From IMG/VR virus record IMGVR_UViG_3300032241_002567, positions 1 through 64,000 of that record: 64,000 nt of DNA. One strand, 5' to 3'. Under the pieces are notes generated by a model. That model made no database searches. It had not been told where the DNA came from and saw only the letters and a program-made list of their open reading frames with translations. Both the position numbers and the translations under genes were made by a program. Of the stretch, positions 44,057 through 49,015 are shown piece after piece. Source of the stretch: a virus. Within the stretch, counting starts at the first letter, position 1; the number at the start of each line of letters is the position of its first letter.

Positions 44057-44317
44057 TTAAATTTTATTTTGTAAATATAATTGGTTTGAAATATATTCTG
44101 AATAAGCAATAGATTCGTCTATTTGCTTACAAAGATACGAATTAATTCCGTAATAATTCATATAGTTTTTATAAGTATCTGTTTCTTCCACAGTTAATGG
44201 TATATACTCTATATCCTTTAAAATAGAATCTATTTTTCTATCTCTATTAACCGCTTTTAATTCTCTTTCTATTTCTTTAGCAAGAAAAATATCTTTTTCG
44301 TAAATATCAGAATGCAT
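44057..44317 (-). CDS. NRDRKIDSIL-module protein
   Basis: Likely start MHSDIYEK at 44317; AVNRDRKIDSILKD...VEETDTY. Confidence 0.6.
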   Translation of the reverse strand: MHSDIYEKDIFLAKEIERELKAVNRDRKIDSILKDIEYIPLTVEETDTYKNYMNYYGINSYLCKQIDESIAYSEYISNQLYLQNKI

Positions 44318-44324
44318 AGTTATA

Positions 44325-45857
44325 TTAAAATTCCCATTCATCCCATTTTTGTTTGTTAAATTCATCATCTGTATAATCTTCATCAGTTTCTTCTTGTTTT
44401 TTCTTTTGTAATGAACTACCAAATATATCCAATACAACTGATAATCTTTTTGTTATTTCTGGCATTCCTAATGGTTCTATAATTGAATTGATAGGAGATA
44501 AGATACATTTATCAAATTGTTCGTCTAAATCTATTTCAGGCGCAATTTCAATAGGATAAGAACCACGATTAAATGCGAATACCGAATTAATTTTTTTATT
44601 CTTACAATAATAATATTTTATTTTAGAACCAGATTTTAAGAATTCATATTTAGATTGTAAATCTTTATTTTTATATAACAACCAATTATAATAAGCGGAA
44701 GCTTTTACCGCAAAATGAGCACCGTTTACAAATAATAATTTATTTTTATCATCCAAAACTTTTTCATTATAATTAGAGCAACTAGATTGCATACTAATCT
44801 CATCAATTCTATCCGGAACACATAAATCAAATTCTTTTTTAAGATTTTTAACCAATTTAAGTAATTCCCGAATGTTAAAAGTATCTGGGTGACTAAATAA
44901 ATATTTAATAATATCTACGATTTTATCTCTCGCAAATGATGGTGTAGAACGTCTAACTAGCTCAACTCCCTTTGGATAGATATAATTTAATCTTTCATAA
45001 GGTATGCCATCTTCAAATACTATGTGTTGAATATATTTCTTTTTGGCAATATAAATAACAGATTCACTAATTCTTTCTAATTCAAAATCTTCTTTATTTG
45101 TAACTCCATAACTTTCAGCATATTCTTCAAGACATTTCTTAAAATATCCAGCATAACGATAATAGTCAAGTCCATGTATATAATCTAATTCATAAGACCA
45201 GTTCCATTTAAGTTTTGATTCTAATTTATTATCATTGATAAACTTATCAAAATCACGATTTTTGATCCATTTACCATCCGCTATAAATAATTCTATTTCA
45301 TCTAAATTTTGAATATCGGACAAATTTTCATAAATACCTAAACAATTAGGATTATCTGATTTAATTTCTTCTCTACCTTTTAGAATTATATGCTTTTTAG
45401 TTATTTTATCTAAATTAGAAAAGAAAAGATTTTTCCAATCTGAATGTGTTATTGCTGGTTTAAATGATACGAATAAAGAATCTGTGTCAGCGTAAATGCT
45501 AACTGGCTCTTTTTCTATTTGCTTTATTTTTCTAATGCAAACTTTTTGATGTAATTCTGTATCTTTATGCCATTGATTATACCAATAATCTTCGTTAACA
45601 CGATTCATTGTTTTAGTCAAATCTCTACCCTGAGCTGTGATTGAAGATGCCACATGGTTATTAAATAGAACGAAATAGGATGCCGCGAAGGCGCCATATG
45701 ATTTTTGCCCCACCATTTCTGGTGGGGCCATTTAAGATCCATTAAGAACTAACTTGAGTGCTAATTGTAAGGCATTGAAATAATCAACATCCTTTTTCAA
45801 GTTAGCAGCTTGAGTTCTTAATGAATCTAATTGTATTAATTTTTCTTCTTTTGTCAT
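44325..45857 (-). CDS. Family-B DNA polymerase, C-terminal subunit (gp43B-like), interrupted by an in-frame stop and 36-nt element
   Basis: 41-aa ORF 45857-45732 ends QLALKLVLNGS*; the same frame resumes ...SYG...ITAQGR, IYADTDS, KKKY, KGVELVRRSTP. Confidence 0.9.
45699..45737 (-). other. Putative translational-bypass element: UCU take-off, UAA, 9-bp GC hairpin, UCA landing
   Basis: mRNA GGA UCU UAA AUG GCCCCACCA GAAA UGGUGGGGC AAAAA UCA UAU GGC; removing 36 nt restores KLVLNGSYG. Confidence 0.7.
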
Positions 45858-45866
45858 TAAAAAGAT

Positions 45867-46772
45867 ATGTTTTTAACTTATAAAACTAAACTAAAAGAAA
45901 GTTTTTTATATAAAAATATATATTTTATTATTATGTTAAAAAACAAAAAGATTGAAGTTTATATTTCATACAGAAATATAACTCACTATAAAAAATTAGG
46001 CTATAACCCCGAATTAAATGAGAATTTGGAAATCGATGTTTATGATTTACCGACATCTTCACATGTTAAAATTGATGCTATTTGTGAAATCTGTAAAGCG
46101 GAAATAAATATAAGATATCATAAATATATTGAAAATAAGAAAAGGCATGGTTTTTATGGCTGTAAAAAATGTTCAAGACAAAAAGCTTCTTTAACTATGT
46201 TCGATAAATATGGAGTTTATAATGTTTCAGAATTAGAGGAATGTAAGAATAAAAAAGAAGAAACATATTTAAAAAAATATGGATATAAAACCAATTTAAT
46301 TTCCCCAGATTATATTTCACTTATAAAAGAAAAATTGAAAGAAAAATATAATACAGAAAATTGGTATGAGATTAGAAACGGTCAAGGTTCTCCTAAAAAA
46401 TTAATAATTTTTGCAGAATCAAAAGAATATACCGAGATAAGTTTTAATTATGATAATCAATTCATGAATAGTGACTATATTATGTATAGGAATGAAGTTC
46501 GTAGACTTACTAAGACTAATGAAAAATTGTTATTCCAAAATTGGAATGGTGAAGATTTTTATGATAAAGAAATTATAAGTAATAATTTTATTTTAGATTT
46601 TAATGACCCAAATTATCCAACTATCGATCATAAAATATCTATTTATTATGGTTTCAAAAATAATATGCAGCCAAAAGATATCGCAAAAATAGAAAATCTT
46701 TGTATCACAAAGAGAAGTATTAATTCTTCAAAAAATAGTAAAAATGAATCAGAATTTATTCGTGAAGATTAA
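45867..46772 (+). CDS. Putative homing endonuclease (zinc finger, KYGV repeats, HNH-like C-terminus)
   Basis: CEIC...CKKC, KYGVYNVS/KKYGY repeats, PTIDHK...NL...N..K; the start may be MLKN downstream. Confidence 0.65.
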   Translation: MFLTYKTKLKESFLYKNIYFIIMLKNKKIEVYISYRNITHYKKLGYNPELNENLEIDVYDLPTSSHVKIDAICEICKAEINIRYHKYIENKKRHGFYGCKKCSRQKASLTMFDKYGVYNVSELEECKNKKEETYLKKYGYKTNLISPDYISLIKEKLKEKYNTENWYEIRNGQGSPKKLIIFAESKEYTEISFNYDNQFMNSDYIMYRNEVRRLTKTNEKLLFQNWNGEDFYDKEIISNNFILDFNDPNYPTIDHKISIYYGFKNNMQPKDIAKIENLCITKRSINSSKNSKNESEFIRED

Positions 46773-47735: not shown

Positions 47736-48488
47736 TTATTTTTTATCATCATATTTAAAATCCAGATAAAATAATAGATCAGTAGGAGCCGACATTGGTT
47801 GAACAGAAGCTAAACCTGATTTTAAATATTCTTGATATTCTTCTGTATCCTCTAATTTTAATTCTTCATAATCTTCATCAAAAAGAATCGAATCAATTTT
47901 CCTATCACGATTAGTAGCAGTCACTTTTATTTCTGCTTCTTCTAATAGTTTTTCATCACCCATAGATAAAGTTTGAGCAGCAACTCTTCTTACAAGTGGA
48001 AGAACCGCACTAGCAAATGGATTACTTGAAGTTGCGGTATGTTGACTCCATAGTGTTTGTTGCTGTTGCCAAACACTATTAGAATCAGATTCGCTTATTG
48101 AATGTGCTTGTGCATATTCGTGCATCCAATCTGCTCTGCTTCTTGTAATTTCCATAGAATCTAATACAGGTTGCCATTTATCTATTGTTTCTTGTTTATA
48201 TTTTTCTATATGACATGTTGTGTATTTTAGATTTTTAACTGGTTTAAACCAAGTTTCGGAAAATTTTTTATATTCTTCTGTATCTTCAATTTTATATTCT
48301 TGGAATTCTGTATCTTCCAAAATAGAATCAATTTTTCTATCCCTATTTACTGCTATAACTTTTAATTTTGCTGCTTCTAATAGAGGACTTGATATTGTGG
48401 TGGTTGTTAATTGTATAATATATGGAGCATATATTATTTTTGATTCTTGACTTTTATATCCAATTACAATTTTATTTGAATCTTCCAT
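47736..48488 (-). CDS. Mosaic of major-capsid-protein-like fragments with two NRDRKIDSIL modules
   Basis: IGYK..IIYAPYI; KWQPVLD; AVLPLVRRVAAQT; SVQPMSAPT.LLFYLDFKY. Confidence 0.65.
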   Translation of the reverse strand: MEDSNKIVIGYKSQESKIIYAPYIIQLTTTTISSPLLEAAKLKVIAVNRDRKIDSILEDTEFQEYKIEDTEEYKKFSETWFKPVKNLKYTTCHIEKYKQETIDKWQPVLDSMEITRSRADWMHEYAQAHSISESDSNSVWQQQQTLWSQHTATSSNPFASAVLPLVRRVAAQTLSMGDEKLLEEAEIKVTATNRDRKIDSILFDEDYEELKLEDTEEYQEYLKSGLASVQPMSAPTDLLFYLDFKYDDKK

Positions 48489-48801
48489 ATTTTATCCATT
48501 CTTCTTTATATTTATCAGACAATCTTTTAAATTCTTCTGTGTCTTCTATATTAGTTGGTGTAAATTCTTTATCTTCTAAAATAGAATTAAGTTTTCCTTC
48601 TCTATTTTGAGCAGTTATTCCAGCAGCAAATTTTTCAAAATTTGCTGCTATTAATTCAGATGCTAAAATATTTTCTAGTGCAGCCTCTACATCTATTCCA
48701 CATTGTGCATACAATCCAGCAGCCTGTTCTCTTGTAATAGAAGCTTTAATTGTTTGAGTTCCAATTTTTATTTCTTTACTTATATTATTTAAGTTTGCCA
48801 T
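48472..48801 (-). CDS. Capsid-protein-like fragment plus NREGKLNSIL module
   Basis: IKASITREQA..L...GIDVEAALENILASEL resembles gp23 LKA.YS.ELAQDL...GMDADAELSGILATEI. Confidence 0.6.
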   Translation of the reverse strand: MANLNNISKEIKIGTQTIKASITREQAAGLYAQCGIDVEAALENILASELIAANFEKFAAGITAQNREGKLNSILEDKEFTPTNIEDTEEFKRLSDKYKEEWIKYGRFK

Positions 48802-49015
48802 TTTTTATCCATTTTTCTTTATCTTCATCCGAAAGCAATTCAAATAATCTTGTTTCTTCGATATTTATTTCGGTATAATCTTTATCTTCCAAAATAGAAT
48901 TAAGTTTTCTTTCTCTATTTTATGCTTTTACACTAGCAGCAACGCACTACATTTTGTAAAATTACTTTACTATTTCTTGTTGCAGAAGTTGTGAATCAAT
49001 TTTATTACTACTCAT
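48785..49015 (-). pseudogene. Degraded paralog of the NRDRK-module genes with three in-frame stops
   Basis: MSSNKIDSQLLQQEIVK*FYKM*CVAASVKA*NRERKLNSILEDKDYTEINIEETRLFELLSDEDKEKWIKNGKLK*. Confidence 0.7.

Follow-up and report, generated by a model that had tools for sequence, protein, structure and literature searches.

A hairpin-bearing coding gap in motif B of a viral family-B DNA polymerase gene, a candidate translational bypass element linked to a homing endonuclease

The DNA analysed here (the window, 64,000 nt) comprises bases 1-64000 of the IMG/VR virus record IMGVR_UViG_3300032241_002567, a 143,836-bp sequence with 26% GC and a CheckV completeness of 26%. Among named sequences, its nearest relatives are the genomes LR745206 and LR756502 (635-642 kb, "uncultured phage"). 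On the minus strand of the window, positions 45857-44325 form a single reading frame with one internal stop. This frame encodes the C subunit of a family-B DNA polymerase (PolB) and is the only gene for this subunit in the fragment. It is interrupted within catalytic motif B by a short insert that contains the stop and a GC-rich hairpin, and a free-standing gene for an HNH-like homing endonuclease lies divergently upstream. Features of the locus are listed in Table 1.

In relatives, the polymerase is encoded by two genes located 40-130 kb apart. The exonuclease domain and motif A belong to the N subunit (~500 aa); the C subunit (~474 aa), which starts with MT(K/R)EEK, comprises motifs B and C as well as the thumb. 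No N-terminal exonuclease/palm subunit was detected in the 143.8-kb fragment. The 468 codons downstream of the interruption match PF00136 (E=9e-15), the match to this family runs across the break, and the second coding segment is 66-88% identical to relatives along its whole length. A phmmer search of the C subunit against PDB sequences gave no match.

Deletion of 36 nt (45734-45699) yields a 498-aa product in which motif B (K-x3-N-S-x-Y-G) is intact. The restored KLVLNGSYGAF is a letter-for-letter match to uninterrupted homologues, for example those at the fetched loci L003 (3899-5323) and L060. Since the uninterrupted gene reads ...ALQLALKLVLNGSYGAF... (L003; L060 at 78% identity), the window has an insertion of exactly 36 nt between Ser and Tyr of K-x3-N-G-S-Y-G. 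The insertion is flanked by a repeat of two codons, which reads TCT-TAA on its left side and TCA-TAT on its right. An initial annotation, made from the letters of this stretch, had proposed that ribosomes hop over the insert, and every one of its coordinates and sequence statements proved correct. The 41-aa open reading frame (ORF) ending in KLVLNGS-TAA, absent from the ORF list, was found as claimed, the 36-nt deletion does give the 498-aa subunit, with a KLVLNGSYG equal to that of uninterrupted relatives, and the "degenerate duplication" it saw in the flanks is real in the form of the two-codon repeat.

Table 1. Coordinates of features at the interrupted polymerase locus (positions refer to the window)
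Feature	Position	Strand	Remarks
PolB C subunit, first coding segment	45735..45857	-	41 codons, MTKEEK...ALKLVLNGS; homologous N pieces in all relatives
41-aa ORF	45857-45732	-	ends ...ALKLVLNGS, then stop
Proposed take-off codon TCT	45737-45735	-
36-nt coding gap	45699..45734	-	missing from uninterrupted homologues; architecture common to 40 other inserts; unique in record
Stop TAA	45734-45732	-
ATG	45731-45729	-	in frame, adjacent to TAA
Hairpin GCCCCACCA-GAAA-TGGTGGGGC	45728-45707	-	9 perfect pairs, GNRA loop
A tail AAAAA	45706-45702	-
Proposed landing codon TCA	45701-45699	-
TAT GGC (coding resumes)	45698-45693	-	continues GCC TTC
PolB C subunit, second coding segment	44325..45698	-	TAT GGC (motif B YG) to YADTDS (motif C) to thumb; stop 44327-44325
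Divergent intergenic region between start codons of endonuclease and polymerase C subunit	45858..45932		short
Free-standing HNH-like homing endonuclease gene	45933..46772	+	divergent from polymerase gene

The hairpin is more than a chance feature and stands out as initially annotated. None of the shuffles gave a match to it within 3 mismatches, no other GC-rich perfect hairpin of such strength (9 bp) exists in the record (three weaker ones have 7 bp), and the local fold around it reaches -30.3 kcal/mol (z = -3.35). No dispersed copies in several genes were detected, the scan of the 143.8 kb for such hairpins returning this one. Two further small stem-loops are predicted on the minus strand, at 45747-45766 (18 nt before the hairpin) and at 45680-45697 (9 nt after it); the latter is built of the unusually GC-rich codons GGC GCC TTC GCG GCA.

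Similar inserts occur in related polymerase genes. In total, 38 viral and 80 metagenome loci were fetched, and 114 of them were classified as uninterrupted (54) or interrupted (60). Comparison of these polB homologs, with the insert present or absent, revealed 41 distinct inserts, 36-48 nt long, at five closely spaced codons within motif B (codons 34-43), namely after Ala, Leu, Val, Ser or Tyr of A-L-K-L-V-L-N-G-S-Y-G. This count includes two manual adjustments: a spurious zero-length insert (L068) was left out and the double insert of L101 was split. In L101 (ERZ724522.30, a 72.7-kb contig), two gaps are situated 30 nt apart, after Leu and after Tyr. The second L101 hairpin (CCCCACC..GGTGGGG) closely resembles that of the window.

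Whatever the insertion site, the geometry of the inserts is constant. In 34/41 inserts, one of the first two codons that follow the take-off codon is an in-frame stop, and in 3/41 the stop is directly adjacent to take-off. The spacer between take-off codon and C-run is 6 nt long in 36/41, usually NNN-TAR. It is followed by a hairpin clamped by C4-6/G4-7, with variable but fully compensated inner pairs and a mean stability of -21 kcal/mol. From the end of the G-run to the landing codon there are 5-9 nt, the 3' tail measures 5-9 nt in 39/41 inserts and is 67% A, and the landing codon is constant while the tail preceding it varies. The first two bases of the take-off triplet recur in the landing triplet in 34/41 inserts, 7 being unmatched; matched pairs are CTT>CTA, GCT>GCT/GCA, GTT>GTA/GTT and TAT>TAC/TAT/TAA, to which the window adds TCT>TCA. 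Weak A-U extensions of the stem reach the take-off codon in some relatives only. With its adjacent stop, 6 nt to the first G-C pair, AAAAA tail and two-codon duplication, the window is the neatest case of the family. Insert lengths are distributed 12/17/12 modulo three, so that 29/41 are not multiples of three. Lacking any such preference, the inserts cannot be read through.

Several features point to a function of these hairpins in mRNA. GNRA or UNCG tetraloops number 19 on the polymerase sense strand and 1 on the antisense strand. Stem pairs were counted from individual folds, MAFFT having misaligned the 3' arms of the hairpins, and 39 among 474 are sense-strand G.U pairs. The sense fold is the more stable one in 33/41 inserts (Wilcoxon p = 1.3e-6). 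It is the GNRA/UUCG loops and the G.U pairs on the sense strand that argue for a role of the transcript. Furthermore, the coding sequence on both flanks of the gaps is under purifying selection, as judged from dN/dS (ratio of nonsynonymous to synonymous substitution rates) of 0.14 in the 33 codons upstream and 0.13 in the 66 codons downstream among insert bearers. In a 464.6-kb relative that is 98% complete, the single C-subunit gene is interrupted. Other CCCC..GGGG hairpins examined in this genome are intergenic, mostly terminator-like with A-run and T-run, and two further matches to the pattern inside an ORF are not hairpins.

The endonuclease gene is the second component of the locus. Its ORF is open from 45867, and homologs start at MLKNKKIEV, which corresponds to 45933, probably the true start. 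In the intergenic region, promoter-like hexamers occur at chance level only. The N part of the 279-aa protein is a zinc ribbon (DUF7487; PHROG 12131 "homing endonuclease", E=8e-7). The C part contains a D-H-K...N-L-C-x-T-K...N-S-x-K motif that is invariant in 19 homologs; D232-H233-K234, N255 and N264 are conserved in all of them, as in the beta-beta-alpha-metal motif. The nuclease domain was not recognised by Pfam even at E = 10. In the structural model, which has a predicted local distance difference test score (pLDDT) of 82, the best fold matches are the HNH domains of Cas9 and Gme, and these are weak (E ~0.01-0.5).

Presence of this gene is linked to presence of the gap. At loci with enough flanking sequence, a homolog in the same divergent position was found in 42/56 interrupted vs 1/44 uninterrupted cases. 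The only uninterrupted allele with an HNH-like homolog upstream, which is truncated by the contig end (L111, Ga0209777_10032505), may represent natural immunity without a gap. In the closest relative (L008, 88% identity) the position is occupied by a GIY-YIG/NUMOD3 endonuclease and the gap lies at a different codon; a comparable exchange of endonucleases has been described for gene 60 cassettes (bioRxiv 10.1101/2022.08.31.505936). At other interrupted loci the endonuclease has been lost. The initial annotation had connected the insert with homing endonucleases, and this link is supported. It had also suggested that the insert protects the site from such enzymes; the gap is better regarded as belonging to a selfish cassette, accompanied by an endonuclease of its own, than as shielding against foreign ones.

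The N piece of the gene differs between the two kinds of alleles as well. Within the 33-residue leader (window 45759-45857), Ser12 is present in 27/36 gap-bearing vs 5/34 gap-free alleles and Leu20 in 33/36 vs 14/34, both counts being uncorrected for phylogeny. This enrichment hints at a co-converted arm of the cassette or at a requirement for the nascent peptide, which would explain it equally well.

The reading that we favour, with a probability of roughly 0.6, is that the window carries a coding-gap cassette linked to a homing endonuclease, analogous and not homologous to T4 mobA/gene 60, and that the interrupted gene is expressed by UCU to UCA bypass. Such a cassette would consist of two parts, the divergent upstream endonuclease gene and the untranslatable gap in motif B. 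By analogy with T4 mobA/gene 60, the predicted activity of the endonuclease would be to cut gap-free alleles in mixed infections; repair would then copy the endonuclease gene and the gap together, and the gap would break up the endonuclease's own target.

During expression, the ribosome would translate 41 codons and arrive with UCU (Ser41) in the P site and UAA in the A site, the stable GC-clamped and GNRA-capped hairpin starting 6 nt further on. Peptidyl-tRNA(Ser) would be released, the mRNA would slide with the hairpin kept compact, and the tRNA would re-pair at UCA after the 5-nt A tail. Decoding would restart at UAU-GGC to give one chain of 498 aa with KLVLNGSYG intact. We infer that one tRNA-Ser reads both UCU and UCA; no tRNA gene was found in the record by Aragorn. 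The mRNA channel holds 11 nt beyond +1 (PMC7282821), and the fixed 6-nt spacing from the codon would thus place the GC clamp inside the channel.

Skipping of the gap, probably by a ribosomal hop as initially proposed, is supported on comparative grounds by 41 variants that share one geometry, by their conserved flanks and by the linked endonuclease. Bypass in particular is favoured by in-frame stops, by synonymous duplicated codons kept through divergence, by the fixed 5' spacing and by the flexible 3' distance. A further point in its favour is the landing zone, A-rich and unstructured like those of gene 60 and yeast byps (bioRxiv 10.1101/2022.08.31.505936). Nothing in the analysis speaks for the further proposal that the hop acts as a regulatory gate.

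A number of observations weigh against bypass. The compared sequences are related, and the counts and p-values given above overstate their independence. In 31/41 inserts an ordinary sense codon (TTT, GTT, GCT...) separates the matched codon from the stop, hence the A-site codon at take-off is usually not slow and take-off must rely on the hairpin alone. Landing triplets are unmatched in seven inserts at site C and in L112. Instead of a decoding requirement, the matching of the codons could stem from target-site duplication (2-3 nt) by a mobile hairpin, and the constant spacing could reflect common descent. A Shine-Dalgarno-like motif occurs at only ~1-3% of 103 gene starts in this phage, as in Bacteroidota-type translation; a landing aid such as the "mini-Shine-Dalgarno" of gene 60 is therefore unlikely here. 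Finally, the window itself is special in two respects: the after-Ser site (site D), fifth of the insertion sites, was found in this contig only, and its stop is immediately followed by an in-frame ATG, unlike in most relatives.

Among other explanations, removal at the RNA level is unlikely but accounts for part of the data. The hairpin would then mark a mini intervening sequence that is cut from the mRNA by an RNA endonuclease of phage or host and closed by a ligase. Selection of the structure in sense RNA agrees with this, gaps that are not multiples of three and the 7/41 without matched codons would need no special decoding, and in some relatives (L025, L017, L043) an extension of the helix joins both junctions. 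On the other hand, the inserts match no intron family in Rfam and are, at 36-48 nt, far below the size of any self-splicing intron. The helix is separated from the 3' junction by 5-14 nt and from the 5' junction by a fixed 6 nt, a spacing ill-suited to a structure-measuring enzyme, and an intron needs neither in-frame stops (34/41) nor synonymous duplicated codons (34/41). We know of no phage system for such RNA-level excision of a hairpin. A group I or group II self-splicing intron in particular is rejected, since Rfam gave no intron match in the window or in 13 loci and the inserts are too short.

For the window only, the adjacent TAA and ATG allow a different scheme, rather improbable in our estimate, in which translation terminates at the stop and reinitiates in frame by coupling. 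The products would be a 41-aa peptide and a 468-aa chain (MAPPEMVGQKS-YGAF) that together with the N subunit make a three-piece polymerase. The polymerase is already split, and the distant N and C genes together with split-intein fracture in relatives (see below) imply that the enzyme tolerates pieces; elements of the gene 60 type likewise split their host gene. Nevertheless, reinitiation would split the dNTP-binding helix (deoxynucleoside triphosphate) between NGS and YG, with 11 foreign residues added. Because at least eight related loci have no ATG, GTG or TTG in the downstream frame before motif B, often with a stop right before the landing codon, reinitiation is not the general rule, and the window follows every geometry rule of the family including the matched TCT/TCA.

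A dead allele in a defective genome or an assembly error is very improbable: site D is known from a single contig and, with the record 26% complete, a second copy elsewhere in the genome is possible, but both the downstream frame (468 codons) and the endonuclease gene are intact, the insert fits the family rules exactly, insert-bearing genes are under purifying selection on both sides and include the sole copy of a near-complete genome, and 40 other independent assemblies contain the same kind of insert. Two simpler readings were rejected. Reading of TAA as a sense codon is incompatible with window genes that are long and intact under table 11 and with most family members being out of frame. 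A role of the hairpin as terminator is dismissed since it has no T-run beside it on either strand, and no terminator-like site was detected on either strand of 45300-46100.

We consider it somewhat better than an even chance that these inserts constitute a second phage family of elements for programmed translational bypass, which would have evolved independently and been carried into motif B by HNH and GIY-YIG endonucleases. Its minimal rule set would comprise a codon, a spacer of 6 nt, a tetraloop hairpin with GC clamp, an A-rich tail of 5-9 nt and a second codon matching the first, without Shine-Dalgarno pairing. To our knowledge, only two natural systems of high-efficiency long-range ribosomal bypass exist, that of T4 gene 60 and its homologues and that of the byps in yeast mitochondria. 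In full-text literature searches, no publication came up that describes bypass for a polymerase gene or for huge phages. If confirmed, the polymerase gaps would be a third bypass system, of simpler architecture, with dozens of natural variants and no help from Shine-Dalgarno pairing. It would permit direct tests of what suffices for a ribosome hop, the 41 or more natural variants providing a ready-made mutational series. It would also mean that homing endonucleases can enter even a catalytic motif of the highest conservation if they supply a translational patch. For annotation, the consequence is that gene callers split or truncate these polymerase genes, so that in many genomes of huge phages an essential gene appears broken.

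Some further observations concern neighbouring genes. Four minus-strand ORFs of the window (44057-44437, 47736-48488, 48472-48801 and 48785-48892) have in common a peptide repeat, ..NRDRKIDSIL.D.E(Y/F)...EDTEE(Y/F).., which may be a common targeting or processing signal; one of them weakly matches the N-terminal part of the Gp23 capsid family. In two relatives, a phage gene for translation initiation factor IF3 is located directly upstream of the interrupted polymerase gene (L025, 2362-2793; L029, 2272-2790), and both are without the endonuclease.

The inserts can be compared with four kinds of known elements. Intrinsic terminators of the same phage group have CCCC...GGGG hairpins of similar size, some with identical inner stem words. 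The polymerase inserts differ from them in having no T-run and in interrupting a conserved coding motif, terminators being intergenic and flanked by A-run and T-run. The exact 22-nt hairpin of the window has one other copy, between genes of an unrelated 4.4-kb viral contig (L007, 1471-1492), where it is preceded by a stop codon and followed by a promoter-like TTGACC/TATAAT. Being intergenic and on an unrelated contig, this copy was rejected as a second site-D allele. It suggests that such hairpins move between contexts, and terminator-type hairpins or this intergenic 22-mer may be the evolutionary source of the gaps.

Fractured genes with split inteins and free-standing endonucleases were reportedly described by Dassa in 2009. 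As in these genes, a selfish endonuclease is associated with a conserved catalytic motif of a replication gene, and relatives of the window display the fractured layout itself at motif C. There (L024, 1061-4191; also L035 and L038), the C-subunit gene is further broken into an ORF ending ...YADTDS|CFSETLV (intein-N-like), a free-standing ORF of 369 aa and a third ORF reading ...DILVHN|SLFVSF (intein-C-like), which is the split-intein arrangement. Whereas fractured genes depend on protein trans-splicing of two chains, there is no intein at the motif B break of the window and the gap is only 36 nt long.

By a published summary, mitochondrial byps of Magnusiomyces capitatus (Lang 2014; Nosek 2015) resemble the phage inserts in being unread inserts of 27-55 nt with GC-rich hairpins in very AT-rich DNA, an A/U-rich 3' part, no Shine-Dalgarno sequence and matched triplets with tolerated deviations. 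According to the same summary, byps are present in 81 copies in 12 genes, whereas the phage inserts occur once per genome (twice in L101) and in polymerase motif B only. Moreover, the phage inserts are linked to endonucleases, and their host is a bacterial virus, not a mitochondrion.

The closest parallel is offered by T4 gene 60/MobA, a 50-nt translational bypass that is part of an element with the homing endonuclease MobA (Huang 1988; Bonocora 2011; Manning and Atkins, bioRxiv 10.1101/2022.08.31.505936). There, a mobile endonuclease is combined with a bypass cassette and the gap protects against self-cleavage (bioRxiv 10.1101/2022.08.31.505936). Both systems affect an essential replication gene that is already split, with the gap ~34-46 codons into the downstream ORF. 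In both, a stop is situated at or next to take-off, an RNA hairpin on the 5' side is followed by an A/U-rich 3' part, the codons of take-off and landing are matched with wobble variants, and a free-standing HNH endonuclease is linked, sometimes lost or replaced by GIY-YIG. The differences are equally clear. Gene 60 encodes the topoisomerase II large subunit and is interrupted in the Toprim domain (Asp45/Gly46), whereas the host here is PolB motif B and no sequence relationship is evident. The T4 stem contains the take-off codon, while the hairpin here is much stronger, GC-clamped and placed 6 nt after the codon. Gaps of the polymerase family measure 36-48 nt and occur at five different codons, their endonuclease is divergent and not between the gene halves, and the mini Shine-Dalgarno located ~6 nt 5' of the T4 landing codon probably has no usable counterpart. 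Bypass of gene 60 is an experimental finding, that of the polymerase gap a prediction from sequence. In a 2022 survey, homologues of gene 60 were found only in topoisomerase genes (bioRxiv 10.1101/2022.08.31.505936). Because of the different host gene, the different hairpin placement and the absence of evident homology, the polymerase gap is not a member of that family, and it seems fairly probable that it nonetheless works like gene 60.

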